This document shows positions 5,290 through 35,884 of a stretch of DNA of 64,000 nucleotides, piece after piece. The DNA comes from a virus (Duplodnaviria; Caudoviricetes): the IMG/VR virus record IMGVR_UViG_3300025389_000011; one strand, given 5' to 3'. The notes beneath the pieces were generated by a model. It ran no database searches. It was not told the DNA's origin and worked only from the letters and a program-made list of their open reading frames with translations. Each line of letters starts with the position of its first letter. Within the stretch, counting starts at the first letter, position 1. Position numbers and translations under genes: made by a program.

Positions 5290-5295
5290 ACTCTC

Positions 5296-5324: not shown

Positions 5325-5339
5325 TAACGGATTTACCCG

Positions 5340-16783: not shown

Positions 16784-16888
16784 TCATTTATAAATAAAAG
16801 GATCTCTTTTACGTAATTCTTTAATGCGTTTACGATAACGTAATTCCATTTTGATTTTATAGTATATATTTTTAATCCAACTAAACAT
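16784..16888 (-). CDS. 34-aa basic peptide (not in ORF track)
   Basis: MFSWIKNIYYKIKMELRYRKRIKELRKRDPFIYK*. Overlaps the stop of the upstream rSAM gene and fills the gap. Confidence 0.7.
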   Translation of the reverse strand: MFSWIKNIYYKIKMELRYRKRIKELRKRDPFIYK

Positions 16889-18155
16889 TTGTGTTCTCCT
16901 TGTTTATAGTGTCAATGATTTCTACAATGTCAGGGTAAATCTTTTTCCAATCTAGATTTCTTCTAACATCTAAATCATCTAAGAATCCATGTAAGTCGTT
17001 TACAGCTTTAACACTTACGGGAGTAGCCAACATTTGCTTTTTAATACCGGTTAATGAATTGATTTCCGGGCTATAATCTTTTTTATATTTATTAAGTGCT
17101 TCAATGGCTTTGTCTACATATGGCACCAAGTGCTTTCCAAAGTTATACGGGTTAAAGCAGTCAGGTCTAACCACTGTGTTCCAATTGAGGTTGGCAGTTT
17201 TATTTTTCAATATCCATTGACCACAGAACATGTCAATTAATTTATGCAATGCAGGTAATGTTACAGCAGTTAGTGTAGCATGTATTTGCAACACAACTCC
17301 CCAACTTTCTAACACGGTATTGATATTCTTTTCGCAATTTTCTAAGTTAAGACCATAACGTGCATACTCTAATTCTGGTCCCCAACAATCAATACTTGCA
17401 GTAATTTCAAAACGTTTTAATTTTTTAGCTTCTACTAATTTTTGAATTCTATTGATTTTTTCCTTGAACTTTTCAGGCTCATGATTTAGATTTGAAAAGA
17501 TACGCCAAATTAAATTTGGATTGTCATGTGTTTCAAAAAATTCTAAATGCTGTTCAAATTCTTTTTGATACATGGGCTCTCCACCCAATGTATTGTAAAT
17601 TACTAAATCTTTTGAGTTTTCATGCATCCATTCCCAGAATTGTTTTACATACTCATCATAGTTATCTCTGTCATCTGCTCTAAAGTTACTATAGTCATCA
17701 TTGAATTGGCTTTTACCATACTTACGTACTTCTTGTTCAATAACGCTACTAAAGCCGGGGGTACAATAAACGCATGATTGATTGCACACGTTGCTAAAGT
17801 ATACTTCCAACAGTCTAGGGTTTACGTTGATTTCTTTAGGGTTTGTTTCTAATTCATACGGAAGCAATTCAACTGATTTGTTTGCAAATCCAATTCTATC
17901 GCTTACCCCACCTGCTTGTTCAACATTGCGACAATATTCGCAACCGTTACCTGGCCATATACCTTCTAACATTTTTTCTCTATCACCTAATTTGCCCGGA
18001 TGATTATGAAAATCTTTTAGTGTATCTTTATTTAATTTCCAATGAAATCCACGATGGCAACTAGCAGTAGTTCCTCGATTTAAGAATAATGTGCTCCATG
18101 TCCATTTATATAGACATGCGGCATCGTTTACTATAGGGAATGTTTTTTTGTTCAT
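16881..18155 (-). CDS. Radical SAM protein, N-terminal twitch (CxxKW...SCH...CxxC type)
   Basis: CLYKW...SCH...CEYC, then CNQSCVYC and LGGEP. Confidence 0.9.
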   Translation of the reverse strand: MNKKTFPIVNDAACLYKWTWSTLFLNRGTTASCHRGFHWKLNKDTLKDFHNHPGKLGDREKMLEGIWPGNGCEYCRNVEQAGGVSDRIGFANKSVELLPYELETNPKEINVNPRLLEVYFSNVCNQSCVYCTPGFSSVIEQEVRKYGKSQFNDDYSNFRADDRDNYDEYVKQFWEWMHENSKDLVIYNTLGGEPMYQKEFEQHLEFFETHDNPNLIWRIFSNLNHEPEKFKEKINRIQKLVEAKKLKRFEITASIDCWGPELEYARYGLNLENCEKNINTVLESWGVVLQIHATLTAVTLPALHKLIDMFCGQWILKNKTANLNWNTVVRPDCFNPYNFGKHLVPYVDKAIEALNKYKKDYSPEINSLTGIKKQMLATPVSVKAVNDLHGFLDDLDVRRNLDWKKIYPDIVEIIDTINKENTNV

Positions 18156-18922
18156 ACTATATTTAAGGTTCTTTTAACCAATGGGAATAATTCTTGTCTG
18201 AAATACATTAAATGTCCGGCTTCATTAACATGATTGTCGATAAAATGATAATGGTTCCAATTGTGTTCAAAGTCCATACGCCCAGAAAAATCATACCTAG
18301 CTATATGTCTATATTGCAAATGTTTAAGTATTTCTAATTCTTTGAATTTAGTATTCATATCAGAATGTATTGTTTCGGGATTACACCATAAAAATTTTAT
18401 ATTTTTAGATGTTACAAACGAATAAGTTGCCAATGTTGACATTAAACTTTGATAATACATTATTGTGTCATTTGTAAGATATTTGTAAAACTGAACTCTT
18501 GCATTTCTATATTCATTATATGCGATTGGATATAATGGATTATTTATTTTATCCGGGTCATCGCCCCAAGCAGGGCACCACGGCACAATCATTTCAGGAT
18601 CTTTATACCCTGCTAAACTAAAACGATCCATGAATGTTCCATTAAATAACACCAATGCTATATCGTCATGTTGATTGATATAATCAACTGTGTCCTTGAA
18701 AATTCCAAATTGACTATTGCCCGGGCTTGCTAAATTAACTACATTATAATATGGTAACTGTTGATTTAATAATGTTGCCCAGCAGTATTCGCTAGAAGGG
18801 TCATTGGGATATTCAAAGGGTTTACCTAAATGAGTTTTTGTTTTCTCATCAAAATAATATATTCTATCCTTACAACCTTGACCATATGTATAGCTATCCC
18901 CTACTACTAATATTGTACTCAT
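18152..18922 (-). CDS. SGNH/GDSL-like protein
   Basis: VVGDSYTYGQG, NLASPGNS, DNHVNEAGH. Confidence 0.7.
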   Translation of the reverse strand: MSTILVVGDSYTYGQGCKDRIYYFDEKTKTHLGKPFEYPNDPSSEYCWATLLNQQLPYYNVVNLASPGNSQFGIFKDTVDYINQHDDIALVLFNGTFMDRFSLAGYKDPEMIVPWCPAWGDDPDKINNPLYPIAYNEYRNARVQFYKYLTNDTIMYYQSLMSTLATYSFVTSKNIKFLWCNPETIHSDMNTKFKELEILKHLQYRHIARYDFSGRMDFEHNWNHYHFIDNHVNEAGHLMYFRQELFPLVKRTLNIV

Positions 18923-19674
18923 TAACTAATTCCTAACTGTTTCATAAAGGGCATTATAACTCTATCAAAATAAATTTTATGTCCTGTGTCATTGCAATGT
19001 CCATCAGGCTGATAACATGTTTTATTAAATTCTTCATTTTCTCTTCCTGAAAAATCATACCTAAATATATGAGGGAAATAGTTAGGTACTAGTTTTGATA
19101 TTTTGTACTTTAGTTTAGAATAATCAACGCCAACCAGAGGCATAGACCAAGCAAATTGTGCGTTACATGCTTTGGCTACCCCATATATTCCCATGATACT
19201 GGTAAATGCATTTTGTAGACCAATACTATCATTATACAAGTATTTTGCATACATCATTTTTGCAGTACTATAATCTTTAGGATCATTGTCTCTGTAAAAA
19301 GAACCATCAAATTTGATAGACCAAGTTACTGGATCTTCTGGATTAAGATAGCTTGCCACTTCAATTCTGTCCATAAAAGCTCCGGCCGCTACAATTAAAT
19401 AGTCTGAATTTATATTGCTACTGGCATGTAGTGTCATTAAATCTCTAAACATTCCTGAATATGAATGTCCCGGTTTACTTGCATTTATTACCAATGCATT
19501 GTTAATATTGTTTTGTAACAAAGAACCCCAGCAATAATTGCTAGGTTTCAAGTGAAAGTCGGATGCCATACTTCCCACCCATACTTTCTTTTCAATATCA
19601 AAGTAATAATTTTTGTCTGAGCACCCATGTCCAAATGTAAAACTATCACCTAGCAGTATAATTCGTTTTATCAT
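18922..19674 (-). CDS. SGNH/GDSL-like protein (paralog of 18152-18922)
   Basis: LLGDSFTFGHGC, NASKPGHS, DGHCNDTGH. Shares GxGCxDxxYYFD and RYDFSGR with its neighbour. Confidence 0.7.
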   Translation of the reverse strand: MIKRIILLGDSFTFGHGCSDKNYYFDIEKKVWVGSMASDFHLKPSNYCWGSLLQNNINNALVINASKPGHSYSGMFRDLMTLHASSNINSDYLIVAAGAFMDRIEVASYLNPEDPVTWSIKFDGSFYRDNDPKDYSTAKMMYAKYLYNDSIGLQNAFTSIMGIYGVAKACNAQFAWSMPLVGVDYSKLKYKISKLVPNYFPHIFRYDFSGRENEEFNKTCYQPDGHCNDTGHKIYFDRVIMPFMKQLGIS

Positions 19675-19675
19675 T

Positions 19676-20428
19676 TCAATCTTTTTTGTCTAAATCTGTG
19701 GAGTATCTTTCGATAATTTCTTTGTTCTTGCAAGTAAGTTCAGGATTTTTATACAAGTCAATAATTTCAGGATATAGTTCCCAACACTCAGAAATTATTT
19801 TAGCAAAAATCATGTTTCTTTCTTTAGATAAATGACACCAACGATTGTCAACACGATTCATATTGGGCAATTCATTTCTACTTACTGATATTAAATTGTA
19901 TAAACATGGACCATGACGGTTATCTAAGTTGGTACTTAAATGTTTGTCTCTACGGTCTTCAAATGTTAACACATTTACTAATTTAATATTTTTGTTTCTG
20001 CATATATCATTTACATCATTGAAGATTTTTTGTTTTACCCAAACATCAAACTCAGTATCTATATTTATAGCACGACCAGTAAGAATTCTTACCATTTCAA
20101 GTTCTTGTTCAATTGTTAATTCTTTGTTTCTGCGTGTTTCATATAACTCATCGGGAGTGTTTAAGAAATGTAATCCTTCACAACCATGTGGCAAATGATG
20201 TATACGATGCAATGAAGAATGCATGAACACAATGTGGTCAAATTGGTCATGATGTGCTAAAAATTGCTGATATGCATACCACGTGCTGGTACCTGTTTTA
20301 CCATAAGTGGTTATCTTGTTTCCACCTTCTTCAATAAATCTAATCCAAGATTCGTCTTCCTTAAAGGGACTATCAGGATTGTGCGGAGCTCTATCCGCAA
20401 AACTATCTCCAAATACACCTATTCTCAT
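19676..20428 (-). CDS. SGNH/GDSL-like protein
   Basis: GVFGDSFA, YGKTGTS, RWCHLS. Confidence 0.6.
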   Translation of the reverse strand: MRIGVFGDSFADRAPHNPDSPFKEDESWIRFIEEGGNKITTYGKTGTSTWYAYQQFLAHHDQFDHIVFMHSSLHRIHHLPHGCEGLHFLNTPDELYETRRNKELTIEQELEMVRILTGRAINIDTEFDVWVKQKIFNDVNDICRNKNIKLVNVLTFEDRRDKHLSTNLDNRHGPCLYNLISVSRNELPNMNRVDNRWCHLSKERNMIFAKIISECWELYPEIIDLYKNPELTCKNKEIIERYSTDLDKKD

Positions 20429-20431
20429 ATA

Positions 20432-21628
20432 TCATCCTTTTTTGATTACTTTATTTACATATAACTTGTCCATGGCAGATTTTTTACCACATGTTTCTAA
20501 ACAGAATAACAATTTACCACCTTCAATAGTTGGTCTACTCCATCCATCTAAAAAGAATTTTTGAAAGTAAGGACCGTTTAATACTTCTACCATATTATAT
20601 ACTTTCAAATCAAATTTATCAAGCCCATATTCTCTAATCAATGTGTTAAACTGAAAACGTGAATATGAACTATGAAATTGACCAAATACTCCACCCAAGA
20701 AACAACAAGGTAACATATACCCATTGGCTGATATGTATACTTCACCATGTTCAGGGTGTTCAATTGATTTACACGCTATGCCATCATTTTCTAAACTTTT
20801 ACCAAACTCGCTAATAATAGGTATATGTCTATCTTGTGCAGTACTTAATACACCTTTACTAAAATCAACTTTGTAACCTAAAGGCGGAGTATAAACTTCT
20901 TCTTTAGAAAAACTAGCATTTGCAGGCCAAATACTGTACTCGAAATATCCTTCTTTGTCATAAACATTAATAGGAGTTGGTTTGTCATCGTATTCACCAA
21001 AACCTAAAGGATTTTTCATTGAGAATATAAATCCCAACTCTTTTGCCAACTTTTGTGCTTCTTCTACTTGATGTTTATTGTGGTCAAATAACAGCCATTC
21101 CCATATTGCTTTGGCCCCGGTAGCACTATATGCTCTCATGTTAGCAATAACTTTTTCCCACTTGACCCCTCTGCGATAAATGTGATTTGTGTCTTCTAGT
21201 CCATCAACACTAAACACAACACCCGGTTGGTTAAACAAGTGATTGTCCCAAAATTTGGGAGTACGGTTTTGTTGTTCCGCAAAAAACTCACCCATGCTAG
21301 TCCAAAACTCAGTATTACGCATACCACCATTGGTTCTTACTTGTTGTATAACTTTACTTGAATGCTCTGAAAAATATTTCATGATTGGTAACAAGTCAGG
21401 AGCCATTCCAGGATCTCCAACATTACCGCAATAATTAATTCCAATTAAGTTTTGTGCTATCTCTACCGGAACCATTCTTTTAATATCTTCAAGCGATAGT
21501 TCTGTAAGTTCTAAGTCTGGTACTACTGCACCACCAGAAAAATTTCTACTACATGCCGGGCAACTGGCATTGCATCTACTTGATAACTCAATGTGCAGTC
21601 TTGCCACTTTATGATACATCTTATCCAT
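20432..21628 (-). CDS. Radical SAM protein with C-terminal SPASM/twitch-like domain
   Basis: CNASCPAC near the N-terminus, CGNVGDP, C-terminal ACKS...YISANGYMLPCC...CLETC. Confidence 0.9.
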   Translation of the reverse strand: MDKMYHKVARLHIELSSRCNASCPACSRNFSGGAVVPDLELTELSLEDIKRMVPVEIAQNLIGINYCGNVGDPGMAPDLLPIMKYFSEHSSKVIQQVRTNGGMRNTEFWTSMGEFFAEQQNRTPKFWDNHLFNQPGVVFSVDGLEDTNHIYRRGVKWEKVIANMRAYSATGAKAIWEWLLFDHNKHQVEEAQKLAKELGFIFSMKNPLGFGEYDDKPTPINVYDKEGYFEYSIWPANASFSKEEVYTPPLGYKVDFSKGVLSTAQDRHIPIISEFGKSLENDGIACKSIEHPEHGEVYISANGYMLPCCFLGGVFGQFHSSYSRFQFNTLIREYGLDKFDLKVYNMVEVLNGPYFQKFFLDGWSRPTIEGGKLLFCLETCGKKSAMDKLYVNKVIKKG

Positions 21629-22881
21629 TATTTTTTTCCTATATATTTTGCTAAATTGTCCGGTTTATTTCTACGCTTAGTGTACTGTTCAAAAAAGATA
21701 TCACTATCAACACGCAATTGTTGTTGATTTTCTTTCACTAAACCACTATCTAACATAGTTAATAATCTGTTGCAATGTTCTTGTTCAACAGGTAACAAAT
21801 CATTACTAATACTATCGTAAAATTTTGTATACTTGTCAATATAAAAATCACGTTCTTGTCGTGTTAGGCAACCAAAACCTTGAAAGTCTGGCTTGTCAAC
21901 CATGTTAATTGATATATAAGGTTTTACTTTGGTACGCTTACGTATGTCAATAATATCCAAATACATTTGATCCAAACTCTGTAACGCAATTGCGCTTACT
22001 GTGGTGCTGATTGTAAATTCTTTAACTGTACTGTTACCTAGTCTTTCTACATTTTCTAACCATTCACTATATACCATACCCTCACGAATAAACTCCGCAG
22101 TTTCTCCTGCGCTTTCATTACTGATATTCATGCGTAAGTTTGTAAGTTTACTAATCTTGTCAAAAAATCTGTCCATAACAACGGGCTTTTGACATAAGTT
22201 ACTGTGTATCACGCATTCAATGTGTGGGTTCATTTGTGTCATCATTTCAAACACACGAAACACTTCTTCATGCATTAAGGGTTCGCCACCACTAACACGT
22301 ATGCTTTCTAGTCCATCTGCAACGGTAGTGAACCAATCCCAAAACAAATTCATATCGGGAGGGTCAATCATTTGTTGTATCTCAGCAATATCTTTTTGAT
22401 AATGTCTGCGGTCGTCAGTTGTAATGTCCTGATAGACTCCTTGATTTCTAATATCATTCATCCATGCTGTACTGAACTGCGGACTGCAATAGCTACATGC
22501 TAAGTTACATGTATTCTGAAATGCTAATTCTAATGCTTTGGGCTTGAATACGTAGTTAGGATTTTTATAATCATCTGCACTTAGATGGTCTTTGAAACTT
22601 AAACTTTTACGTGTTCTGTCACTACGCAAGCCTAAGTTTTCATAATGCCAACAGCTATTACATGCAGGAGGTTGTTCACCTGCTAACATACGCTTTTGTT
22701 GTTCACGTTTTTCAGCAGGATTATAAAATGTATCTACTGTGTTGCCCACTTGAATAAAGGGAGTATAATGACAACTTGCTATTTTACCCGAGTATACCCA
22801 AATACTTGCTTCATGGAACTTAGCCAAACACATTGTTGGACTGGTTTCATCACGTATCTTGAAAAGTTTTTTCTCATCCAT
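21628..22881 (-). CDS. N-twitch radical SAM protein
   Basis: CLAKF...SCH...CNSC; CNLACSYC; VSGGEP. Confidence 0.9.
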   Translation of the reverse strand: MDEKKLFKIRDETSPTMCLAKFHEASIWVYSGKIASCHYTPFIQVGNTVDTFYNPAEKREQQKRMLAGEQPPACNSCWHYENLGLRSDRTRKSLSFKDHLSADDYKNPNYVFKPKALELAFQNTCNLACSYCSPQFSTAWMNDIRNQGVYQDITTDDRRHYQKDIAEIQQMIDPPDMNLFWDWFTTVADGLESIRVSGGEPLMHEEVFRVFEMMTQMNPHIECVIHSNLCQKPVVMDRFFDKISKLTNLRMNISNESAGETAEFIREGMVYSEWLENVERLGNSTVKEFTISTTVSAIALQSLDQMYLDIIDIRKRTKVKPYISINMVDKPDFQGFGCLTRQERDFYIDKYTKFYDSISNDLLPVEQEHCNRLLTMLDSGLVKENQQQLRVDSDIFFEQYTKRRNKPDNLAKYIGKK

Positions 22882-24224
22882 TATAATACCTTGATTTTAT
22901 TGTACTGTTCTTTTTGCAATGTTACGTTTAAGTTGTTGTGTATAATATAATTTTTCATATTGATATGTTCTGGATAAACATCAAAAAAACTTTGACTGCG
23001 AATATCATCTAGTTTTGTTGTGATATGCCAAAAGTCTCTAAGACTTTCATCAATACCCGCATGGTATTTTGATGTATCCGACCACATAAATTTAATTGCA
23101 GTATCATACATACTTACCACATGTTCGCAGTTACCAAAAGTTTTTAGCCACTCAATGTTTTCATTTAGTTTGATTTCAATTTCACGCTTTTTCCAATCAG
23201 GAATATTCTTCAAACAATAATAGGGAGGAGTATCTAATGGATTAACCATGATTTTATCAGGTTGAATATATCCCAATTCAGTCCATTCTCTATGAAACTC
23301 TACCAAGTTAAATGCATTAGGCCAACTTAATGTATATGCTATACTAAAGTTAACGTGCGGAGTTTGTTCCATCATGCGTTTACGATTTTCTACAACTTGT
23401 TTCCAATCTGTGCCATTACGCCAGTATTCGGCTTTTTCATGACTGCCATCTAAACTTGCATATACATTTACGTCTTTGAACTTTTTCCAATACTCTAACA
23501 CATTATCAAAATTCTTTAACTTGAAATTAGTAAAGTTTGTGTTGTATCTGATAGTAATATCTGTGTTGCCAAACTCAATCAATTTATCTAAAATTTGATA
23601 GTGTTCTTTTTGCATCAATGGCTCACCACCTGCAAAGTAAATGCACTTAGCTGTTGCTAAGTGTGGTAATGTTTCTAAAAATGCTTGTTCTTCAGTTTTA
23701 CCTGGATATTGAAATCCATCGTCTTTGTCTCTGCGCTCAACCAAATTGTATAGTTTTCTATGGTCTAATATCCATCCAGTGCTATAGTGAGGGGCACAAC
23801 TACGGCAACTTAAATTACATAGGTTATTAAATCGTACATCAATGTAATACAATTTATGTTCATCTAATGAACCATCAGGGTTAGTACTTGCTACAATATC
23901 TTGTATGTCTTTGCTTTTTTCAAAAAACAATTTGTTGTATTCATTCTTGTGTGCGTAATCAATTTCCGCACGTTGGTTACATATGTGACAATTGGGTTCT
24001 TCAATGCCGTTTAAGAAATCTAAACGCATTTTTTTCATTTTGTCATTGTTCCATATTTCTTCTAATGTGTTTTCTTTAAGACTACCCACTTGTTCATTGT
24101 GGCTATACACACAGCAAGGTTTAACATCACCTGGTGGACCTACATATTGATGAATCCATGGAAAGATACAAAATGTTTTACTTGTTTTAGCTAATGCTAA
24201 TGGATCAAACGTTTGATTGGACAT
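22881..24224 (-). CDS. N-twitch radical SAM protein
   Basis: CIFPW...KPCC...CHIC; CNLSCRSC; FAGGEP. Confidence 0.9.
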   Translation of the reverse strand: MSNQTFDPLALAKTSKTFCIFPWIHQYVGPPGDVKPCCVYSHNEQVGSLKENTLEEIWNNDKMKKMRLDFLNGIEEPNCHICNQRAEIDYAHKNEYNKLFFEKSKDIQDIVASTNPDGSLDEHKLYYIDVRFNNLCNLSCRSCAPHYSTGWILDHRKLYNLVERRDKDDGFQYPGKTEEQAFLETLPHLATAKCIYFAGGEPLMQKEHYQILDKLIEFGNTDITIRYNTNFTNFKLKNFDNVLEYWKKFKDVNVYASLDGSHEKAEYWRNGTDWKQVVENRKRMMEQTPHVNFSIAYTLSWPNAFNLVEFHREWTELGYIQPDKIMVNPLDTPPYYCLKNIPDWKKREIEIKLNENIEWLKTFGNCEHVVSMYDTAIKFMWSDTSKYHAGIDESLRDFWHITTKLDDIRSQSFFDVYPEHINMKNYIIHNNLNVTLQKEQYNKIKVL

Positions 24225-25521
24225 AATTTGTTATTTTTTCATACATATAGGGAAATACATCGCTGAACTTTTCATTTCTAACATTATCTAATAGTTCAGT
24301 TTCGTGTAAGAATTTTTTCAACATTTCTTTATCACTTGGTTGACTATTCATTAATATGATAGCATTTTCCCAATGACTTATTGATTGGTCATATGTAAAA
24401 TTCTTTTCTTGTGTTTCTTCTAACCATTTTAAATGATTTTTAATTTTTTCTGTTACTTCTTGTTTAACATCAGGAGGCAATATATTGGTTCTGAAATGTT
24501 GTGGGTAATGTAATGTGTTCAAATAAAACCCAAACTTATCAAACAATTTATTCTCACACATGTATCTATGCAAATCAACTGCTTGGTAACAATTTAATAA
24601 ACTATATACTGCGGTGATGCCATAATCTTTATTAGGCAAATATTCTTTAGCGGTCTTGATCCATTCAAGTGCAACGTTCCAATCAAAACCTTTACGTATA
24701 TATTCACCTTCTGCGCCCATTGCATCAACACTACCCACAATAAACACATTGTCAAACTTCTGTAGTAACTCAAATGCATTATCGTCTTTAAGTGTATATG
24801 TTGTAAGATTGGTATTGTAACGTATCTTAACATCAGTTTTGTTTTTAGCAATCAATAATTTTAAGAAATCATAGTGGTCTTGTTGCAACATAACCTCACC
24901 ACCGCTAAAGTGTACTTCAGTATATGTATCAATGATATTAACCAGTTCTTCTAAATCTGTGTGTACATTTTCTGAATCATTGCTTAACAATCTTGAGTTT
25001 GTGGTAAAATGATGACGACCTAATTTAATTTCATCAGGAATCCAAGCTGTGCTACAACGTGTACCACAACTACGGCATTTCAAATTACACAAGTTATTAA
25101 AGATTAAATCAACTGTTGAGATTTTTAAATCATTATCAACTGTGCCATCTGTGTCACTATGCTTTAATATGTCTTCTAATTTGTTGGCATTGGTTTGACT
25201 TAATGCATCAGGGAATCGTGAATAGCGTTCATTAAATCTTTCACGCATACTAACAATACCACTATCCTCTTCGCTCCAACATTTAGTGCAAGGTTCAGGC
25301 TTTTTACCATCTAAAAAGTCCTTACGTAACTGATTCCATTTGTCATTGTGAAATGTATCAATCAATGTACTGTTGTTCCAATTGCCTAATACATTGTCTT
25401 TGGTATGTGCAGGATTATAATAACAGCATGGTGTTATCTCTCCGTCTGGTTCTGTATGTATTTGTAGCCAAGGTAGACTGCAAAATGTTTTTGGTAATTG
25501 TTCTACTGTTAAATTAATCAT
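24205..25521 (-). CDS. N-twitch radical SAM protein
   Basis: CSLPW...TPCC...CTKC; CNLKCRSC; FSGGEV. Confidence 0.9.
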   Translation of the reverse strand: MINLTVEQLPKTFCSLPWLQIHTEPDGEITPCCYYNPAHTKDNVLGNWNNSTLIDTFHNDKWNQLRKDFLDGKKPEPCTKCWSEEDSGIVSMRERFNERYSRFPDALSQTNANKLEDILKHSDTDGTVDNDLKISTVDLIFNNLCNLKCRSCGTRCSTAWIPDEIKLGRHHFTTNSRLLSNDSENVHTDLEELVNIIDTYTEVHFSGGEVMLQQDHYDFLKLLIAKNKTDVKIRYNTNLTTYTLKDDNAFELLQKFDNVFIVGSVDAMGAEGEYIRKGFDWNVALEWIKTAKEYLPNKDYGITAVYSLLNCYQAVDLHRYMCENKLFDKFGFYLNTLHYPQHFRTNILPPDVKQEVTEKIKNHLKWLEETQEKNFTYDQSISHWENAIILMNSQPSDKEMLKKFLHETELLDNVRNEKFSDVFPYMYEKITNYVQSNV

Positions 25522-26671: not shown

Positions 26672-26672
26672 T

Positions 26673-27806: not shown

Positions 27807-29080
27807 CCTGATAACTCCGGGAAATTCATGTTAAAGTTTTTATTTCTGCGTTTGTCATACTCATTAACAAACTTACTAAACTGGTCTGTACGCCAATCTC
27901 TGTCTTCTGTTGTCATTGTGTCGTGTCGTGCTTTCCAAAAGTCATAAACCATTTGCCACGTTTCTTCTTCTACATTAGTTACATTATTGTTTTTAATAAA
28001 ATCATTTGTATCATCAAAGTACTTATCGCAATAATCAGGGAGAATTCTTAAATCAAACTGTTTAGGGTCAACAAGTCTTGCACAATTAAACATAATGTCT
28101 ATGCCATCATTGCGTAGTTCAATAACTTTCTGTATAAATGTTTTAAAGTTAAAAATACTCATTAACCCAAACGTTACCATAATACGAATAGGTACATTAA
28201 ATGTTGTACTTACTTTGCGTACAGTATTTTCCCAACGTTCAATATCTAACCCATCACGAATGTACTCAGCTTGTGGGCCCCATGTATCCATGCTTGTATA
28301 TACTTCTAAGCCTTTGATTGTTTTAGCATTTAATAATGTTGTTGCTTTTTCAAAGAACATGTTTAAGTTCTTATCAGGTACACACAAGTTTGTGTTTACA
28401 ACCAATGTTAAGTTGGGGTTATGATTTGTTGCAACAAAGTCTAACAACTTCATAAAGTTGCGAGTTGCAAGTGGTTCACCCCCTGTAATGCGTAGATATT
28501 TTAAGTCTTTGTAAGCATCTGGTAACCACTGCCAAAATGCATCAATATATGGATTGTCATCTTCTAATAACATGTCATGCATTTTGTCTTTGTGTACTGT
28601 AGGGTCTTCAATGGGGTAACTACCATACTTGCGTACTTCTGTTTCCCACTTACTACTTTGTCCAGGACTGCAATAACTGCAACCAAAGTTACACACGTTA
28701 CTAAAACTTAGTTCCAAATAACTGGGATTGATATGTTTATCATAAGGTGCATTGATAATTTCTTCTCTGCGTTCAATAGCATATTGTTCGTTGGTAAAAC
28801 GTTTTCTATCACTAATCACATCTGGATTAATCTTTTCCATGTCAAAACAGTAATAGCATTCGTTAGGTTTTTCACCATTCATCATTTGTCTACGTTGCTC
28901 AATTTTATGTGCGGTGTTGTGCAACATGCTTGGGTCACGTTTTACATCTTCTAAGTTCCAACGATGTATTGGTGGGTGGTAGCAACTGTGATTTTCTCCC
29001 ATACCAAAGTGCATGGTAGCCATTAACCATTTGGCTGAACAAAAACTATCTTTAATCTTATCTGGAATAATTGGTATCAT
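27797..29080 (-). CDS. N-twitch radical SAM protein
   Basis: CSAKW...SCYH...CYYC; CNFGCSYC; ITGGEP. Confidence 0.9.
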   Translation of the reverse strand: MIPIIPDKIKDSFCSAKWLMATMHFGMGENHSCYHPPIHRWNLEDVKRDPSMLHNTAHKIEQRRQMMNGEKPNECYYCFDMEKINPDVISDRKRFTNEQYAIERREEIINAPYDKHINPSYLELSFSNVCNFGCSYCSPGQSSKWETEVRKYGSYPIEDPTVHKDKMHDMLLEDDNPYIDAFWQWLPDAYKDLKYLRITGGEPLATRNFMKLLDFVATNHNPNLTLVVNTNLCVPDKNLNMFFEKATTLLNAKTIKGLEVYTSMDTWGPQAEYIRDGLDIERWENTVRKVSTTFNVPIRIMVTFGLMSIFNFKTFIQKVIELRNDGIDIMFNCARLVDPKQFDLRILPDYCDKYFDDTNDFIKNNNVTNVEEETWQMVYDFWKARHDTMTTEDRDWRTDQFSKFVNEYDKRRNKNFNMNFPELSGWI

Positions 29081-30255
29081 AAAAATTTCTCTAATTCTGG
29101 TATGTAATCATTATATCTTATATTACGTGCATTGTCAACTGCTACAATAAAGTCTTTGGCTTTAGTTAGTAGTTCAGGTTGAAACTCTATGTTAAGTTTA
29201 GCAAACAAATCATTGCGTTGATATTCGGGTAACTTGTCAGCATAGTATTCTTTCAACTCAGTTTTGATATGGTTGGGCAATACTGCTAGACTTAAGTAGT
29301 CTGGGTATAACACATAATTGTGATGTGGGTGTTTGTTGTATTCACTACTTAACCAATCGCTAAACTTGTCTAAGTTATAGATATTGAAAATGCTAACAGT
29401 CTGCGTAACATGCCAGTCTACATTCTTTAGTTTGTTTAGTTTTTTAATACTGTTAAGTGTCTGTTCCCATTTGGTTGGGTAACGAATATAATAGTTGCGT
29501 TCATTCAAGTCATCAATACTTGCGTTGACTGTAACCTTTTTAAAACTTTTCCATAATGCAATTAAGTTGCTGGGAATATCCATCATGTTCAAGCTGTAAA
29601 CCAAATGTACATTTTGTGCAACATCTAACAATATCAATTTCTTTAAGTATTCAAAGTGTGCTTTAATCAATGTAGGTTCACCACCATTGATGTAAATTTC
29701 TTCTACGTCTTTACTGTGTTCTGCTAAGTCTTGATAGAACTCGGGTTTTTCAAACCATTTGAAATTTTCAAGCGGGCGCAATTCGAACCAAGGCAACACT
29801 TTAGCAATTTTCTTTTCATCAGGATACCATTTGCTACTGCTATAACTGTTGCAAGTTAAACAAGCATTGTTACATACATTACCCAATCGTAACTCTACAT
29901 AACGCAAGTCTACGTTTTGTAACTTAGCAGATTTTTCTAGTAAAGGTATAATGTGCGCCCAACGTTCGTTTTCATATTGACGTTTGCTTTTAATGCCCTT
30001 GTCTTCGTCACTCCAACAGCCTTCACACTCAACAGGACGTTGTCCATCTATCATAGCTTGGCGAACTTCAATAAACTTTTTACTGTTCATAATGTCACTA
30101 ACACTATCATTGTCAAGCATAACTAGACTTTGTGTGTCATCTTTCTTTGCCCAACTGATTGCATTTGTATGATTGCTACGGCAACATAGGCTAGCTCCTC
30201 CGTTAGGGTGCGTAGCCAAATGCATCCAGGGTAGTACGCATAATGTATCACTCAT
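29077..30255 (-). CDS. N-twitch radical SAM protein
   Basis: CVLPW...LCC...CEGC; CNNACLTC; INGGEP. Confidence 0.9.
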   Translation of the reverse strand: MSDTLCVLPWMHLATHPNGGASLCCRSNHTNAISWAKKDDTQSLVMLDNDSVSDIMNSKKFIEVRQAMIDGQRPVECEGCWSDEDKGIKSKRQYENERWAHIIPLLEKSAKLQNVDLRYVELRLGNVCNNACLTCNSYSSSKWYPDEKKIAKVLPWFELRPLENFKWFEKPEFYQDLAEHSKDVEEIYINGGEPTLIKAHFEYLKKLILLDVAQNVHLVYSLNMMDIPSNLIALWKSFKKVTVNASIDDLNERNYYIRYPTKWEQTLNSIKKLNKLKNVDWHVTQTVSIFNIYNLDKFSDWLSSEYNKHPHHNYVLYPDYLSLAVLPNHIKTELKEYYADKLPEYQRNDLFAKLNIEFQPELLTKAKDFIVAVDNARNIRYNDYIPELEKFL

Positions 30256-31657
30256 TGTAAATATTATCCCACCATTTTAATAATTCAGGGTTACGACTGT
30301 AAATGTCACGTAGGGTTAACGGATTCTCACGAATTTGCTCTAGTCTTTCTACCCAACCTTTACCGTTTTTAGCACCCTGTTTGTATGTTTCTGGCCACTC
30401 TTCGGCATGTGTTTTACGTGTTTCTTTTAATGCCTTTAAGTTACCAATCAAGGTGTCTTGTTTCCACGTAGCACGTGGTGTAATGTACTCTAAGATATCA
30501 TCTACCATGTCGTTGAGTATAGGACGTGGCCAACTTAATGGTGTCCACATGATATCATTGTGAAAGCCAAACGTTGTTTTAGTTTCAATCTTAACATCTA
30601 ATTCAATACTCAAGTCAAACAAGTCTTTAATTGAAAACATGCCTGGAGCAGTTAGTGTTAAATCAAGAACCATTTTGTCTTTACCATTTGGTAATGCTAG
30701 TCCTTGCTTGAAGTTTTCTAACCACTTGTCCCATTTAATGCCTGTGCGAATGTATTCAACAATTTCACCAGTGCCATCAATACTTGCACACATCATCCAG
30801 TCTTTGTACAATGGAAGATAATCATATAAGTTTTTCTTTCCAAATTGTACACGACTTAAGTTACTGTTATAACGCATGTAACATTTCTCATTACTCCCGT
30901 TATTCAGCATTTCTTCTAATGTCCACCAATGTATATCATACATCAATGGCTCACCACCAACCCAATACATTTCTTCAACAATACCCCTGCGTACCGCATC
31001 CTTAAATTCTGCTTCCACAACATTAACTTGAAAGTCTTGCATGGCACTTTTGATTTCCGGAATCATAAAAGGTTGATTCTTTGGTGTCCACATATCATGT
31101 GTTTTCTTTTCAGTTTCCCATGCGCTACTTAATTGTTCTCCGCACATACGACATTTGAAATTGCATAGATTGCTAAAGCGATAATCGAAACTAATTGGTT
31201 CCATCGTGGTGTAACCATTATCGTCTGTGCTATCAAATGCTTGTTGTATTTTGTCACGGAACAATGCACCGGTAAACCAACCGCGGTAGCTATAACCTTC
31301 CATCAATAGATTTTTGTTGCATACATCACATTGTGGAATCTCTTCGCCACGCATTAACTTAACACGTATGTCACGCATGTATGGACTGTTCCAATGTTCT
31401 TTTAGACTAATAGGCTTATATGCATCAAGTGAAGTACCGCTTTCTTTTACATTGCCATACTTGCTATCATTACTACTGTCAATATATTGTTTTTGAAAGC
31501 TATGTTCTTCACGACTGGCACAACATAATCTGCGTTCGCTTTGTGGGCTTATGTAAGTGTGTGTCCATGGCGCCATGCAAAACACTTTGTTTTTGCTTTC
31601 AGGAGCAGGCTTTGCATTATCTCCCCATATAGGGATTATTCTGTTATTAGTATCCAT
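30248..31657 (-). CDS. N-twitch radical SAM protein
   Basis: CMAPW...LCC...CDVC; CNFKCRMC; VGGEP. Confidence 0.9.
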   Translation of the reverse strand: MDTNNRIIPIWGDNAKPAPESKNKVFCMAPWTHTYISPQSERRLCCASREEHSFQKQYIDSSNDSKYGNVKESGTSLDAYKPISLKEHWNSPYMRDIRVKLMRGEEIPQCDVCNKNLLMEGYSYRGWFTGALFRDKIQQAFDSTDDNGYTTMEPISFDYRFSNLCNFKCRMCGEQLSSAWETEKKTHDMWTPKNQPFMIPEIKSAMQDFQVNVVEAEFKDAVRRGIVEEMYWVGGEPLMYDIHWWTLEEMLNNGSNEKCYMRYNSNLSRVQFGKKNLYDYLPLYKDWMMCASIDGTGEIVEYIRTGIKWDKWLENFKQGLALPNGKDKMVLDLTLTAPGMFSIKDLFDLSIELDVKIETKTTFGFHNDIMWTPLSWPRPILNDMVDDILEYITPRATWKQDTLIGNLKALKETRKTHAEEWPETYKQGAKNGKGWVERLEQIRENPLTLRDIYSRNPELLKWWDNIYNE

Positions 31658-32780
31658 ATTCTATCGCCATTTCTTTGTATTCGGGAAACGCATTAATAAA
31701 TGATTCTTCCCTACGTAAATCAACTTCTTTTAATCTTGCTATTGCCGCTGTCATCAAATTTGATTTATCTTTACTGTTCATAAATAAAACCATTCCCTTC
31801 AATGTATCCATATTAACTTTATTTTTATCAATACTATTAAAATATTTTTCAACACGTGTTTTGATATTTTTAGGTAATACTTGCAAATTAAACAAATCTG
31901 AGTATACTGTATTAAAATTAATTTGTGGTTTATTATCAAAAGAAGCTAGTGCATCAATTATCTTTTCTACATGAAAAACATTTGGCCAAGATATAGTTAC
32001 TGTATACTCTAATTTAACATTTGGCATTAATTGTTTAACTTGTTTAACGTTATTAATAATTGTATCCCATTTTTCTCCATGTCTCCAATATTCGGCAGAA
32101 TCTTCAACTGCATCTATACTTACTCTAAAAATAACATCACTAAAATGTTTCCATTTATCAAAAATGTGTTGGTTCTTAAATGTCAATAGTGATGCATTAC
32201 TGTAATATAACAACTGAGGGTCTAGTTTGTTTTCTATAAGATAATCTAAAAAGTCCCAATGTTGCCATTGTAGTAGAGGCTCTCCTCCACTAAAGGTAAC
32301 TGTTTTTAGATTACTAGCAATTTGCTTTGACTGATTTAATATAAAATTTTCATCTATCCCAGAATAACGTAATACCGGAAACTTCCAATTTAAGTATTTT
32401 TTTTCTTCTGTGGCAATTGGTGAACTGGTATTTGGTATGCACGTTCTGCATTTAGAATTGCATATGTTTGAAAATCTAACTTCTAAGTGAGAAAAATTAT
32501 CTGATTCAAAAATAGTTTTATCAGTTTTTGACAACCAAAATTGTCTATTGCTACCAATATTTTGGTCTATCTCCTCTAAATTATAACATGAATTACATAA
32601 TGGATTTCTAATACCATTTTTCATGTCTGATTTTAATTGTTGTAGTTTTTCGTCTTTCAGATATTCATCAATTGTTTTGACATTGACCATGTTGTTTAAC
32701 GAACAGGGTCCCATTTTGTTGTCCATGTCATAATGAACAGCACCAAAAGCCAATGGACATATATATCTGTTATCGGTCAT
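31647..32780 (-). CDS. N-twitch radical SAM protein
   Basis: CPLAF...GPCS...CNSC; CNSKCRTC; FSGGEP. Confidence 0.88.
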   Translation of the reverse strand: MTDNRYICPLAFGAVHYDMDNKMGPCSLNNMVNVKTIDEYLKDEKLQQLKSDMKNGIRNPLCNSCYNLEEIDQNIGSNRQFWLSKTDKTIFESDNFSHLEVRFSNICNSKCRTCIPNTSSPIATEEKKYLNWKFPVLRYSGIDENFILNQSKQIASNLKTVTFSGGEPLLQWQHWDFLDYLIENKLDPQLLYYSNASLLTFKNQHIFDKWKHFSDVIFRVSIDAVEDSAEYWRHGEKWDTIINNVKQVKQLMPNVKLEYTVTISWPNVFHVEKIIDALASFDNKPQINFNTVYSDLFNLQVLPKNIKTRVEKYFNSIDKNKVNMDTLKGMVLFMNSKDKSNLMTAAIARLKEVDLRREESFINAFPEYKEMAIEYGY

Positions 32781-34309
32781 TGTAAATCTGGGTTAACAAA
32801 CACATCTTTACTAGGATCTTCAGCAGGATGAATTGGAATATACCCTGTACCATCACTATATTGACCTGTTGTGATTTCTGTTTCAGTTGGTAAGTCTGTG
32901 TCAATACTATCGTAAAAGTCTACAAACTCTTGCGGGAATGTATTACGGAAGTCTTTACCTCTACGAATATCATATTGATGGTAGAATTGTTTAAAGTCAC
33001 GTTTGTTTTGCTCAGGGTCTTTAACATTTTTGTGCGGAGTTTTAATAACGTCAAGATAGTCAATCAGTCGTTGTGTTTGCTCACGCTCAATATGCATAAG
33101 AATTGGGCTACCGCCTGTTGTTCTTTCATCTTTTGCAATTTGTTCATCTAACCATACTTGTAGTTTTTCGCTGTACTTTTGACGAACATCCATTGGCAAT
33201 AATGAGCAACTTTGAAAGCTAGGGAAACGTAAGATGTTCAAACTCATTGTTGGATAGTGAGTGTCATGCTTACGCTTAAATGCTAGTATTTCATCCATGA
33301 ACTCAGTAATACTTGCTAAACACAAACTATTGATTGTCATCATAATGTGTGTCTTTTTGATATTACCTTCAGTATGTAAACGTGTTAAATTATGAATCCA
33401 TTTATCCCAAATGAAACCATCACGAATATATTCGCTATGTGCGCCTAAACTTTCTGCGCTAGTGTATACTTCTAAGTGCGGGACAAAGTGACTTAACTCA
33501 ATCAATCTATCCATGATATCATCTTTAGGAACTAAGTTACTGTTAATCGCATAACGCATAACTTTTCCATCTTTACGATTTTTAACACGTTCTTGATTTG
33601 CTTTGAACCATTCGAATAGTTTCCATACGCCCGGAGCCATTAATGGCTCCCCACCTGTAATGCGAATTTCTTCTAAGTTATCTGCAAGACCATCTTCTTG
33701 TTCCCACCAACGCCAAAAGGCTTGAATATATGGGTTAACTTCATCAGGCAATGGCTTTGCGTGGTCTGCCGCATTAACAAAGTGACTACGGGCATCACCA
33801 TCGATGTTACGATATGGGCCATACTTGTGAATGTCTTTTACCCATGTTGTGCTAAAACTAGGGTTACAATAACTGCAACCAAAGTTGCATGTTCTATCAA
33901 AACTAATTTCTAATGTACGCAACATTGTGTTTTCTTGCCAATCTGCTTTGGCAGTTTTTAAAATATGTTCTTCTTCAAATACAGCAGTCTTGTATACGCG
34001 GTCACTGATGTTGTTACGACCAATATCTTCAATCTTCCAGCAGTACTCACACTCTTGTGGACGTGTGCCTTCCTGCATCATTTTACGCATAAGTTTTTTA
34101 TGTGGAGTATTATGAATTGCTGAAGGGTTTTCAATCAATTCATTGGCATCAATTTGATGACCTAATGGGTGGTGACAGCTTGTTGTTTGACCATTACCCA
34201 ACCAAATAGTTGCGTTTAGCCATTTTGCCGCACAATAACTCTCACTAATTGGATCAATCAATCGTGCTTTATACTCTGCAAAACTTTCTGTGTGTTTTTT
34301 ACCTGCCAT
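32777..34309 (-). CDS. N-twitch radical SAM protein
   Basis: CAAKW...SCHH...CEYC; CNFGCSYC; ITGGEP. Confidence 0.9.
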   Translation of the reverse strand: MAGKKHTESFAEYKARLIDPISESYCAAKWLNATIWLGNGQTTSCHHPLGHQIDANELIENPSAIHNTPHKKLMRKMMQEGTRPQECEYCWKIEDIGRNNISDRVYKTAVFEEEHILKTAKADWQENTMLRTLEISFDRTCNFGCSYCNPSFSTTWVKDIHKYGPYRNIDGDARSHFVNAADHAKPLPDEVNPYIQAFWRWWEQEDGLADNLEEIRITGGEPLMAPGVWKLFEWFKANQERVKNRKDGKVMRYAINSNLVPKDDIMDRLIELSHFVPHLEVYTSAESLGAHSEYIRDGFIWDKWIHNLTRLHTEGNIKKTHIMMTINSLCLASITEFMDEILAFKRKHDTHYPTMSLNILRFPSFQSCSLLPMDVRQKYSEKLQVWLDEQIAKDERTTGGSPILMHIEREQTQRLIDYLDVIKTPHKNVKDPEQNKRDFKQFYHQYDIRRGKDFRNTFPQEFVDFYDSIDTDLPTETEITTGQYSDGTGYIPIHPAEDPSKDVFVNPDLQ

Positions 34310-34318
34310 GTGTTTTCC

Positions 34319-35884
34319 TTAATGTTTGGTATACGCTTTAATACATTCTCTCCAGTACCATTTTAGTTCTGGAAATATTTCCATAAAATTTGTTTGCCTA
34401 CGTCTATCGTACTCACTAATAAACATGTAGAAGTTAGTTTTATTTAGTGACACTTGGTCCGCTGGCAAAGATTCTTGCATTATAGCAAGGTCTCGCTTGA
34501 TTTTCAATATCTCATAGGGTTTAAATCCTTCGAATGTTTCCGAATAGTCTTCACCTTGTACGTTGTCTTCCATATATTTCAAACAACGTTCTACTTCTTT
34601 GATACCATATTCTCCTGCATTTTGTATGCTGAACCATGGTGGATAACGTAGAATGGGTATGTCAAAGAATACACGTTGATATTTCTTTTGCTTATAAACT
34701 TTGTGTACAATATTATTTTCTTTTTCAGTTTCAGTTTGTTCGGGTGCGATTGTAAACTCAGTTTGGGCACGTCCACCAAATTCTTCACGTAGTGTTAAAA
34801 TCATTTCTAAAAATTTATGTAAGCTGGGAATGCTTAACATGTTGAATGTATTGATAAAACTAACTGTGCTGTATTTTGTTTCACGTAAAAAGGTACGAAC
34901 ATTGTTCAACAATCTGTCAAACTCTAATCCAGTACGCATATATTCTGCTTGTTCCCCAAATCCATCTAATGATACAAACAACCAAAAGTGCTTGAAGCCT
35001 TTGTCTACATACCAATGATTACCGCTGAACTCATTAAAGTTTTCCTTGTCTTCATATGTACGTAATTCTTCTAGTGCCTTTACTTTTTCTAAAAACTTAT
35101 CAAATAGTTTTTGATCTGGAGGACACATGTTACTTGTTATACTTAATTCAAGTTGACCATGTGGGTTTTCATTTACATAGTCTAATACTTTAAATGTGTT
35201 TTTGTCCATGAGTGGTTCACCGCCGGTCATTCTAAAAACACGTAACTTACGATAAATCTCAGGAAACCATTGCCAAAATGCTTCAACATATGGATTATCT
35301 TTAGCCGCAACCTTAAGTGGCATTAGTCCCTTTTTCTCCAAATGCTCTAAGTTGTTGTGTGTCATGTCAGATAATTTATACCCACCATGTTTTTTAACTT
35401 CTTCTTCCCAACTTGTGCTTAGGTGAGGACTGCAATACATGCACTTGAAATTACATGCTTGATTAAAATTAACCTCTACATAGCGAGGGGTAACATTATA
35501 GTCAAAACTATTTGTTGTTACTTCGTCAAATGTTGGTGCGTTCCACCACTCACTACTGCGATAATGTCTATCACTCATGTGACCTTTGGGGTCATCACTT
35601 TGTGCATCTTCTACTTTCCAACAGTAACTACAACCCTCAGGTCTTTCACCGTTGAGCATTTGTTTGCGTTCATGTATTTTGATAGGTGTATTGTGTAATA
35701 CACTAGGATTATCTTTTAATAACTCTAGTGGAATCTTATGCGTAGGAGGATGGTAACAGCTTTGTGTTAATCCACTTGGCAAGTGTATTGAAACTTGTTG
35801 CCATTTTGCGAGACATAGTGATGGACTGACCGCATTCAAGCGGTCACGCATGTCTCTAGCATATTGGTCGTACTCACCCGACAT
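34319..35884 (-). CDS. N-twitch radical SAM protein
   Basis: CLAKW...SCYH...CSYC; CNFKCMYC; MTGGEP. Confidence 0.9.
   Translation of the reverse strand: MSGEYDQYARDMRDRLNAVSPSLCLAKWQQVSIHLPSGLTQSCYHPPTHKIPLELLKDNPSVLHNTPIKIHERKQMLNGERPEGCSYCWKVEDAQSDDPKGHMSDRHYRSSEWWNAPTFDEVTTNSFDYNVTPRYVEVNFNQACNFKCMYCSPHLSTSWEEEVKKHGGYKLSDMTHNNLEHLEKKGLMPLKVAAKDNPYVEAFWQWFPEIYRKLRVFRMTGGEPLMDKNTFKVLDYVNENPHGQLELSITSNMCPPDQKLFDKFLEKVKALEELRTYEDKENFNEFSGNHWYVDKGFKHFWLFVSLDGFGEQAEYMRTGLEFDRLLNNVRTFLRETKYSTVSFINTFNMLSIPSLHKFLEMILTLREEFGGRAQTEFTIAPEQTETEKENNIVHKVYKQKKYQRVFFDIPILRYPPWFSIQNAGEYGIKEVERCLKYMEDNVQGEDYSETFEGFKPYEILKIKRDLAIMQESLPADQVSLNKTNFYMFISEYDRRRQTNFMEIFPELKWYWRECIKAYTKH

Follow-up and report, generated by a model that had tools for sequence, protein, structure and literature searches.

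Thirteen radical SAM genes of a jumbo phage form an expanded copy of a conserved cassette that travels with glycan-type enzymes

We analyzed a window of 64,000 nucleotides from the IMG/VR virus record IMGVR_UViG_3300025389_000011 (Duplodnaviria; Caudoviricetes), in which 13 intact genes for radical S-adenosylmethionine (SAM) enzymes, in the following called rSAMs, lie on the minus strand within positions 16881-35884. This array is not a singular case: conserved phage cassettes of this kind travel with glycan-type enzymes, and the one in the window is an expanded copy. We tentatively favor the explanation that a conserved late-gene cassette encodes the rSAMs as enzymes for the site-specific tailoring of glycans, probably those on the virion fibers.

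Each of the 13 genes contains exactly one CX3CX2C motif and retains every cluster cysteine. Pfam PF04055 matches all of them, in eight cases above the gathering score. The SAM-binding GGE motif (G199, G200 and E201 in the rSAM alignment A1) is invariant, and a C-terminal D..R helix (D406 and R409) is at least 90% conserved. The junctions across 20432-35884 range from -20 to +9 nt. We searched the genes with the NCBIfam model NF033640 (N_Twi_rSAM; cut-off 170 bits), which matched 12 of the 13 over nearly its full length. Ten are clear members with 232-365 bits, and two are borderline: 25514-26671 reached 170.0 bits in one scan and 167 in another, and 26673-27806 reached 166 and 161 bits, just under the cut-off. 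The matches of these two genes start only at model positions 44-51, so that the first ~44-50 positions are unmatched, in agreement with the shortened twitch domain that an earlier reading, made from the sequence only, had ascribed to them. The gene at 20432-21628 is not a member (38 bits). The genes are listed here with their conservation in 17 close IMG/VR relatives (close loci) and the ratio of nonsynonymous to synonymous substitution rates (dN/dS); N-twitch denotes an N-terminal twitch domain, and bit scores refer to NF033640.

34319-35884, minus strand: N-twitch rSAM, SC(YH) clade, 521 amino acids (aa); 288 bits; orthologs in 16 of 17 close loci; dN/dS 0.045
32777-34309, minus strand: N-twitch rSAM, SC(HH) clade, 510 aa; 290 bits; dN/dS 0.066
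31647-32780, minus strand: N-twitch rSAM, divergent, with a single Cys replacing CC, variable member; 260 bits; no ortholog of ≥45% identity in the 17 close loci
30248-31657, minus strand: N-twitch rSAM, PCC type, 469 aa; 295 bits; N-terminal Pfam SPASM; dN/dS 0.03
29077-30255, minus strand: N-twitch rSAM, PCC type, 392 aa; 345 bits; N-terminal Pfam SPASM; dN/dS 0.046
27797-29080, minus strand: N-twitch rSAM, SC(YH) clade, 427 aa; 283 bits; orthologs 71-89% identical in 17 IMG/VR loci; dN/dS 0.068
26673-27806, minus strand: N-twitch rSAM, shortened twitch, 377 aa; 166 bits, model positions 44-387; 42% identity to 25514-26671; dN/dS 0.18
25514-26671, minus strand: N-twitch rSAM, shortened twitch, variable member, 385 aa; 170.0 or 167 bits; no close ortholog in the 17 loci
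24205-25521, minus strand: N-twitch rSAM, PCC type, 438 aa; 338 bits; N-terminal SPASM, 40 bits
22881-24224, minus strand: N-twitch rSAM, PCC type, 447 aa, closest to bacterial members; 365 bits; AlphaFold2 (AF2) model with a predicted local distance difference test (pLDDT) of 93
21628-22881, minus strand: N-twitch rSAM, SC(H) clade, 417 aa; 242 bits; dN/dS 0.038
20432-21628, minus strand: rSAM of canonical order, 398 aa; CX3CX2C at residue 19, C-terminal Cys; dN/dS 0.045
16881-18155, minus strand: N-twitch rSAM, SC(H) clade, 424 aa, located outside the main array; 232 bits; orthologs in six close loci

The pattern C-x17-23-C(C)-x26-63-CxxC precedes the CX3CX2C motif in all 12 N-twitch genes. 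The conserved twitch cysteines number only four, a count that would be consistent with a single auxiliary [4Fe-4S] cluster. Pfam SPASM matches the N-terminus of four paralogs, and in a profile built from 22881-24224 and its homologs, the N-terminal 80 residues match the C-terminal twitch of BtrN (4m7t residues 177-260, E 9e-9). The remaining gene, 20432-21628, carries five C-terminal cysteines (C286, C308, C309, C376, C380) that are invariant in 12 orthologs. These orthologs match Pfam SPASM at ~284-350 with 26-29 bits (cut-off 21.5; the window copy scores 15.6 bits), and because of these matches we assign the gene the canonical order of core followed by a C-terminal SPASM/twitch-like domain. 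The match of the N-terminal twitch hidden Markov model (HMM) to its C-terminus was not significant (E 0.4-1), yet fell at the same alignment position each time. The viperin model NF038283 gave at best 16-30 bits with the rSAM genes (cut-off 180). The sequence-only reading had described 13 CxxxCxxC genes at these coordinates, 12 of them back to back at 20432-35884, with an auxiliary motif ahead of the core in 12, the normal order only in 20432-21628, and in most a shared C-terminal helix; our analysis bears out each of these points, and the search with NF033640 that it had called for returned the ten clear and two borderline members.

The window paralogs are 19-31% identical to each other, except for the pair 25514-26671 and 26673-27806. 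On contigs of sufficient length, the close relatives keep 8-13 copies within 21 kb. In a maximum-likelihood tree, each of 11 of the 13 paralogs groups in a separate clade with its orthologs from related phages; several of these clades also take in more distant phage-like contigs. Just distant relatives were found on the tree for 25514-26671 and 31647-32780; since both lack an ortholog of at least 45% identity in the 17 close loci, we regard them as variable members of the cassette. Three sub-clades had been proposed from the motifs. The tree recovers the SC(H/YH) group (16881, 21628, 27797, 32777 and 34319) as a monophyletic, phage-only expansion and pairs 25514 with 26673, but the PCC group is paraphyletic, with bacterial members falling inside it near the 22881-24224 type.

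The dN/dS values relative to orthologs are 0.04-0.17 for 11 genes, with dS near saturation. When the pairs were restricted to dS ~1, the values were ~0.03-0.18 in the ten groups that could be re-analyzed, far from the value near 1 expected under relaxed selection. The array does not differ from its flanks in GC content. The individual conservation together with the low dN/dS fits non-redundant roles in one pathway, and the earlier picture of divergent, intact enzymes stands. Its further proposal of one combinatorial chemistry, in which each paralog would serve a different site or step, may apply.

To delineate the cassette, we combined the window with a profile scan of IMG/VR, which yielded at least 400 relatives. 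Eighty further loci, in the following called distant loci, were studied; they are 31-50% identical with few exceptions. In the window, 24 co-directional genes extend from 39709 down to 14440 (25 kb), with junctions of at most 9 nt save for one gap of 120 nt. The array sits within a tail-fiber module, in which a tail-fiber/spike-like gene (TF) and a fiber-like gene (f1) are followed by a pair of glycosyltransferase (GT) genes, a gene called X, a sulfotransferase-like gene, the rSAMs, SGNH-like genes and a carbamoyltransferase gene. The features other than the rSAMs are:

40734-41993, minus strand: TF, tail-fiber/spike-like, opens the cassette; Pfam Peptidase_G2 intramolecular-chaperone domain at residues 257-346; match to a PHROG virion structural protein
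39762-40715, minus strand: f1, fiber-like protein of 317 aa, rich in S/T/G (29% S+T, 12% G), candidate acceptor; no Pfam match
39729-39736, minus strand: T4-type late-promoter-like TATAAATA, 20 nt upstream of the start codon at 39709; motif match only
39404-39709, minus strand: small protein a, 101 aa; at the same position in 42 of 80 distant loci
38604-39407, minus strand: predicted GT-A (GT8-like) glycosyltransferase, paralog 1; aligned with 37858-38607 (alignment A3)
37858-38607, minus strand: predicted GT-A (GT8-like) glycosyltransferase, paralog 2; AF2 pLDDT 94, Foldseek GT-A matches
37490-37861, minus strand: small protein b, 123 aa; 35 of 80 distant loci have it between the GT pair and X
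36550-37503, minus strand: X, virus-only enzyme-like protein with LIDGDN motif; 71% mean column identity (alignment A4); in 59 of 80 distant loci
35874-36548, minus strand: sulfotransferase-like (Stf0/NodH type), a lead only; ESM Atlas feature score 0.95-0.97 and structural template modeling (TM) score 0.64-0.72 to sulfotransferase clusters
18152-20428, minus strand: three tandem SGNH/GDSL-like hydrolase or acyltransferase paralogs of 250-256 aa each; GDS, D/R and C-terminal His invariant (alignment A2)
15918-16760, minus strand: fourth SGNH-like protein (AlgX/GDSL-like), 280 aa, a lead only; ESM Atlas structure TM 0.6-0.7 to SGNH/AlgX clusters; no Pfam match
14440-15951, minus strand: NodU/CmcH-type carbamoyltransferase, last cassette gene; Pfam Carbam_trans_C 3.5e-48, Carbam_trans_N 1.1e-30
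9119-14431, minus strand: non-fibrous 1770-aa protein downstream of the cassette; ~75-aa repeat units (F.FSW.PDP..PPYIYVFGNQW; WxPDPxxPPYIYVFGNQW-type) and an X-like C-terminal domain

The same arrangement recurs in the distant loci, in the order TF, f1, a, GT, GT, b, X, sometimes the sulfotransferase-like gene, then rSAMs interleaved with two families of ~355 and ~364 aa, and finally the carbamoyltransferase gene. The TF family HMM matches 27 of the 80 loci, where TF comes first, and f1 directly follows TF in 40. The GT family HMM matches 49 loci, nearly always with a pair of genes; the carbamoyltransferase gene was found in 38 and the more variable sulfotransferase-like gene in five. Full 10-kb flanks were available for 39 loci. 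Of these, 29 contain the GT pair and 32 contain X; the carbamoyltransferase is present in 27 and an SGNH-like gene in 25. A single locus lacks all three of GT pair, carbamoyltransferase and SGNH-like gene, whereas 38 of 39 have one or more of them. Some cassettes encode an extra uridine diphosphate (UDP)-glucose dehydrogenase, a nucleoside diphosphate (NDP)-sugar epimerase/dehydratase or a B12-rSAM. The N-twitch rSAMs number 5-6 per distant locus (median), and because this is the typical content, the array of the window, with 12 genes plus one, is an unusually expanded copy of a common phage cassette.

The two interleaved families occupy fixed places within the typical cassette. The ~364-aa family occurs in 32 loci and the ~355-aa family, typically directly before the carbamoyltransferase, in 30. 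Both lack a Pfam match and are absent from the window. In another jumbo phage (L104, a JGI contig of 358,613 bp), three tandem N-twitch rSAMs follow PAAR and cell-wall hydrolase genes.

The companions of the rSAMs were assigned by different lines of evidence. The carbamoyltransferase contains both expected domains far above their cut-offs (Carbam_trans_N 108 bits, cut-off 24; Carbam_trans_C 164 bits, cut-off 27). In the three tandem SGNH paralogs, G7, D8 and S9 (the GDS of block I) and H199 (block V) are invariant, and Pfam Lipase_GDSL matches nine of the 18 members of their alignment, with a best E of 1.5e-5. For 37858-38607, the top 50 Foldseek matches of the model in the PDB are all GT-A structures of the GT8/GT34 type (E 1e-6 to 4e-5, probability 1.0, TM 0.33-0.50), including XXT1, LH3, glycogenin, LgtC, GlyE, PBCV-1 A64R and Mimivirus R699. 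At the sequence level, this protein gave a weak profile match to glycogenin and no significant family match; D74, D169 and H234 are invariant (alignment A3). No Pfam or NCBIfam match was obtained for the sulfotransferase-like protein.

The protein X has no match in PDB, Pfam or PHROG. A relationship of X to GT-A enzymes was considered and rejected, as the X profile showed no relation to the GT-A profile or to the PDB. Similarity (E 2e-8) exists between its N-terminal 226 aa and residues 1539-1735 of the 1770-aa protein, which itself matches nothing in Pfam or PHROG. The small proteins a and b are neither cysteine- nor serine-rich. The motif TATAAATA occurs three times in the window versus 13.7 copies expected by chance, and scans for sigma-70 promoters and terminators remained at chance level.

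The source record is 103 kb long and 29% complete; the same array also occurs in a related record of 352 kb, which is 100% complete. The carrier is a jumbo myophage of ~350 kb. The nearest cultured relatives of the baseplate wedge gene in the window are the jumbo myophages of the Atu_ph07, Phosso and RaK2 group. Directly after this gene lies an open reading frame (ORF) of 6337 aa (42813-61826, minus strand), composed of 20% S+T and 10% N, with at least seven copies of the motif F.G..FGG(I/V)...YY(V/I), probably a giant fiber or baseplate protein. A permuted two-piece transfer-messenger RNA (tmRNA) of the betaproteobacterial model (4904-5338, minus strand; RF01850 134 bits, RF04321 139 bits; tag peptide ANDSVYSLAA) is a hint that the host may be a betaproteobacterium. 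At 223-2932 (minus strand) lie genes encoding a GT4 glycosyltransferase, a RimK-type ATP-grasp ligase and a metallophosphoesterase; the tmRNA and structural genes stand between them and the cassette. The 103-kb record, which is 29% complete, yielded no helper genes for Fe-S proteins (A-type carrier, PaaD-like, glutaredoxin). A megablast search of the array against cultured phages gave no match. A paper on moraphages (PMC12619734) was considered as a description of this lineage and rejected, since radical SAM is not mentioned there.

We also investigated the family beyond these phages. The protein 22881-24224 has more than 5600 homologs at E≤1e-5 (clusters at 90% identity). In 79 loci from a genome collection, most hold one or two N-twitch rSAM copies, and the commonest neighbor is again a carbamoyltransferase (17 loci, or 14 without three phage-like contigs). 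A Fluviicola locus combines three N-twitch rSAMs with a carbamoyltransferase, a UbiA-GT4-GDSL fusion, a WelO5-like protein, three PhyH oxygenases, an ABC ATPase and a methyltransferase. In this cluster (L099/L100, 10001-19862), oxygen-independent (rSAM) and oxygen-dependent (WelO5/PhyH, 2-oxoglutarate-type) sets of C-H-activating enzymes lie together. A Bacteriovoracaceae locus contains GT4, an ABC-2 exporter, PMT_2 and a Peptidase_S74 protein. Among cultured phages, Vibrio phages K566/K567 have five N-twitch-type copies, and 40 vibriophage records, mostly KVP40-like, have ~3 each. KVP40 itself has three (genes 0260, 0261 and 0272), one of which lies two genes downstream of a GT1-family gene; the neighboring GT gene is 0274. 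The earlier reading had described the family as known mainly from uncultured aquatic organisms, but it is not restricted to uncultured ones: cultured Reichenbachiella species and the KVP40-like vibriophages have members.

Some loci of the genome collection are probably viral. Six array contigs (L018, L020, L023, L031, L050, L053), labeled as metagenome-assembled genomes (MAGs) of Legionellales, Haliscomenobacter, Verrucomicrobia, Rickettsiales and Betaproteobacteria, are syntenic with the phage cassette including the fiber gene and are probably mis-binned phage DNA. In the Elusimicrobia MAG MJ-2014_bin-0981, at least 15 contigs have N-twitch rSAM matches, many in ORFs of 2-3.4 kb (L030, L035, L040, L043, L052, L054, L055, L057, L077 and others). 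Fused genes or the read-through of tandem genes could account for these ORFs, as could a recoded large phage that was binned with the MAG.

The closest known family is thus NF033640, with which the window genes share the full-length match, the N-terminal four-cysteine motif, CX3CX2C and GGE. The family has no assigned function, and the SC(H/YH) clade of the window is phage-only and separate from the bacterial members. The closest characterized protein by profile is BtrN (2-deoxy-scyllo-inosamine dehydrogenase, the founding twitch enzyme); no other solved protein had a twitch that was found in this way. BtrN has a single C...C...CxxC auxiliary motif and a sugar-like (aminocyclitol) substrate, but the domain order is reversed, its length is ~250-270 aa compared with 377-521 aa in the window, and the similarity of the core is generic. 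When the AF2 model of 22881-24224 was compared with solved structures, generic rSAM cores were found, with Foldseek TM 0.3-0.4 and VIA Z 11-13 to BlsE (Z 12.9), CteB, MoaA, SkfB, GDGT-MAS and anSME. Full-length matches (TM 0.6-0.86) were obtained only to uncharacterized proteins, including many from uncultured phages and the "MoaA/NifB/PqqE family" proteins of KVP40/phi-pp2.

Virus-encoded virion glycosylation, as in mycobacteriophages, PBCV-1 (A64R) and Mimivirus (fibril genes), resembles the window in that GT genes lie among structural genes. In contrast, the tailoring enzymes of the window far outnumber its transferases. These glycosylation systems are not known to involve radical SAM enzymes. 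For mycobacteriophages, glycosylation of capsid and tail is reported by Freeman et al. 2023 (PMC10527164), as cited in PMC12619734.

Phage genomes with 8-12 rSAM genes are already in print, where these genes are described at annotation level and in passing only (PMC5332604, PMC12390700, PMC7029224). The T4-like environmental viral genome TARA_ERS488813_N000010 has 12 rSAM genes, discussed as Fe-S metabolism (PMC5332604), "radical SAM cassettes" occur in the host-recognition clusters of pelagimyophages (PMC7029224), and Aeromonas phage 332-Vera has eight in a structural cluster, called highly unusual (PMC12390700). Like the window, these phages and K566/K567 and KVP40 are large marine or freshwater myophages with many rSAMs, often in structural or host-recognition regions. 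Family membership was compared for K566 and KVP40, whose copies have the same N-terminal cysteine pattern or fold as those of the window; the KVP40 copies lie near nrd/nadV genes and not among fiber genes.

The explanation by glycan tailoring would work as follows. The two GT8-like enzymes, perhaps together with X, would place a short glycan on a cytoplasmic acceptor, most likely the adjacent S/T-rich fiber proteins before virion assembly. Each N-twitch rSAM would cleave SAM to a 5'-deoxyadenosyl radical that abstracts hydrogen from one particular sugar C-H. The four-cysteine auxiliary [4Fe-4S] cluster could then take up the electron to give a keto-sugar, as in BtrN; alternatively, the radical might be re-quenched or eliminated, leading to epimerization or deoxygenation. 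In this way, different paralogs would edit different residues or positions. Acyl, sulfate and carbamoyl groups might subsequently be attached or taken off by the SGNH-like, sulfotransferase-like and carbamoyltransferase proteins. The reactions would probably take place in the cytoplasm, because the N-terminal sequences of the rSAMs contain no obvious signal peptide or membrane segment and because virion proteins and sugar precursors are available there.

Glycan editing is favored by the constant carbohydrate-enzyme companions, the twitch resembling that of a sugar dehydrogenase and a cassette that opens with fiber genes and shows no machinery for polysaccharide export. The rSAM core is closest to the SPASM/twitch group, which includes the sugar-nucleoside enzyme BlsE, and bacterial homologs lie in polysaccharide-type loci in Fluviicola and Bacteriovoracaceae, while others stand alone. 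Several points weigh against it. Substrate class, chemistry and target are all drawn from gene context. The structural matches of 22881-24224 are generic, and most characterized SPASM/twitch enzymes act on peptides or proteins. The GT-A assignment of the pair rests on predicted fold, and the sulfotransferase-like and fourth SGNH-like assignments are leads from Atlas similarity. The conserved gene order may partly reflect common ancestry in one phage lineage. The Reichenbachiella-type genes stand alone in uninformative contexts, and the rSAMs of the L104 phage adjoin NifU/IscU, an AhpC peroxiredoxin, a CMD-family protein and a fatty-acid desaturase, while glyco-enzymes are missing from their surroundings; the neighbors present suggest that this phage supplies Fe-S assembly and oxidative protection for its rSAMs.

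The main rival, which we consider unlikely, is that the rSAMs directly modify amino-acid residues of virion proteins (TF, f1, the 6337-aa or the 1770-aa protein), introducing cross-links, epimerized residues or other alterations by which the fibers would be hardened, and that the glycosylation by their neighbors is a separate matter. The nearest solved folds include the peptide maturases CteB, SkfB, anSME and SuiB, which share the core fold (Z 11-13), the sub-threshold NCBIfam matches of 25514 and 26673 are mostly thioether/cyclophane maturases, and the array lies between giant structural genes. The His-Xaa-Ser (HXS) system likewise has several rSAM paralogs side by side. Unlike these maturation systems, however, the window has no recognition domain, precursor peptide or His-Xaa-Ser protein. 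The Pfam scans returned no PqqD-like recognition domain of RiPP type (RiPPs are peptides made by the ribosome and modified after translation), and the array has no spare intergenic space. The HxsB/HxsC models reach 15-23 bits with the rSAMs (cut-offs 268-370), no His-Xaa-Ser repeats occur in the six frames of the window and the record, and His-Xaa-Ser, poly-Ser and RGRR tails are absent from the 103-kb record. The fiber proteins of the cassette are also cysteine-poor, its constant partners are sugar enzymes, and the twitch best matches BtrN.

Quite unlikely, in our view, is the same glycan chemistry aimed at the host, in which lipid-linked or nucleotide-sugar precursors of lipopolysaccharide, capsule or S-layer would be remodeled, for example to block superinfection or to release progeny. 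The bacterial homologs in ABC-transporter-type polysaccharide loci and the GT4 gene elsewhere in the window would suit such a role, as would the host-surface modification proposed for the glycosyltransferases of pelagimyophage host-recognition clusters (PMC7029224). But the scanned cassette genes match no family of initiating polyprenyl-phosphate transferases, flippases, polymerases or exporters, the cassette opens with fiber genes and a late-promoter-like motif, and a lytic phage would pay a heavy cost, 25 kb, to alter the surface of a host that is dying. The absence of aminotransferase, cyclase, non-ribosomal peptide or polyketide synthase, resistance and export families among the scanned cassette genes, and the conserved position in a structural module, make a biosynthetic pathway for a small molecule very unlikely. 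Such an aminoglycoside-, nucleoside- or Nod-factor-like glycoside would act on the host or on competitors; BtrN, BlsE, DesII and TobZ/NodU-type enzymes come from pathways of this kind, and bacterial rSAMs also neighbor WelO5/PhyH oxygenases and methyltransferases. That the paralogs are redundant or decaying and have no joint function is largely refuted and hardly credible: copy numbers do vary from 1 to 13 between phages, and 25514 and 31647 lack close orthologs, but all 13 frames are intact with their cluster cysteines, dN/dS is low, the ortholog clades are deep, and the GC content is that of the flanks.

In the literature searched, we found no mention of NF033640 or N_Twi_rSAM, and papers on "twitch domain-containing radical SAM" proteins concerned other enzymes. 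Likewise, neither a description of the conserved cassette with its glycan context nor a characterized pathway of identical architecture was found there.

The N-twitch rSAMs are a large family under purifying selection, and the conserved cassette provides its first testable hypothesis on a substrate class. Cultured systems for such a test are the KVP40- and K566-type vibriophages, the Ralstonia phage RsoM2USA and Reichenbachiella species. A bolder version of glycan tailoring, which we regard as doubtful, is that the N-twitch rSAMs are a new class of glycan C-H editors, 5-13 of which in each large aquatic phage rewrite its own fiber glycan residue by residue. If glycan tailoring is correct, radical chemistry would join viral glycobiology, and up to ~17 kb of oxygen-sensitive Fe-S enzymes in large aquatic phages would be explained. 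The family would then also be a source of site-selective C-H-activating enzymes for carbohydrates. Under the bolder version, the cassette would represent a virus-encoded, radical-based diversification of glycans without a characterized counterpart, possibly tuning host recognition or shielding the fibers.

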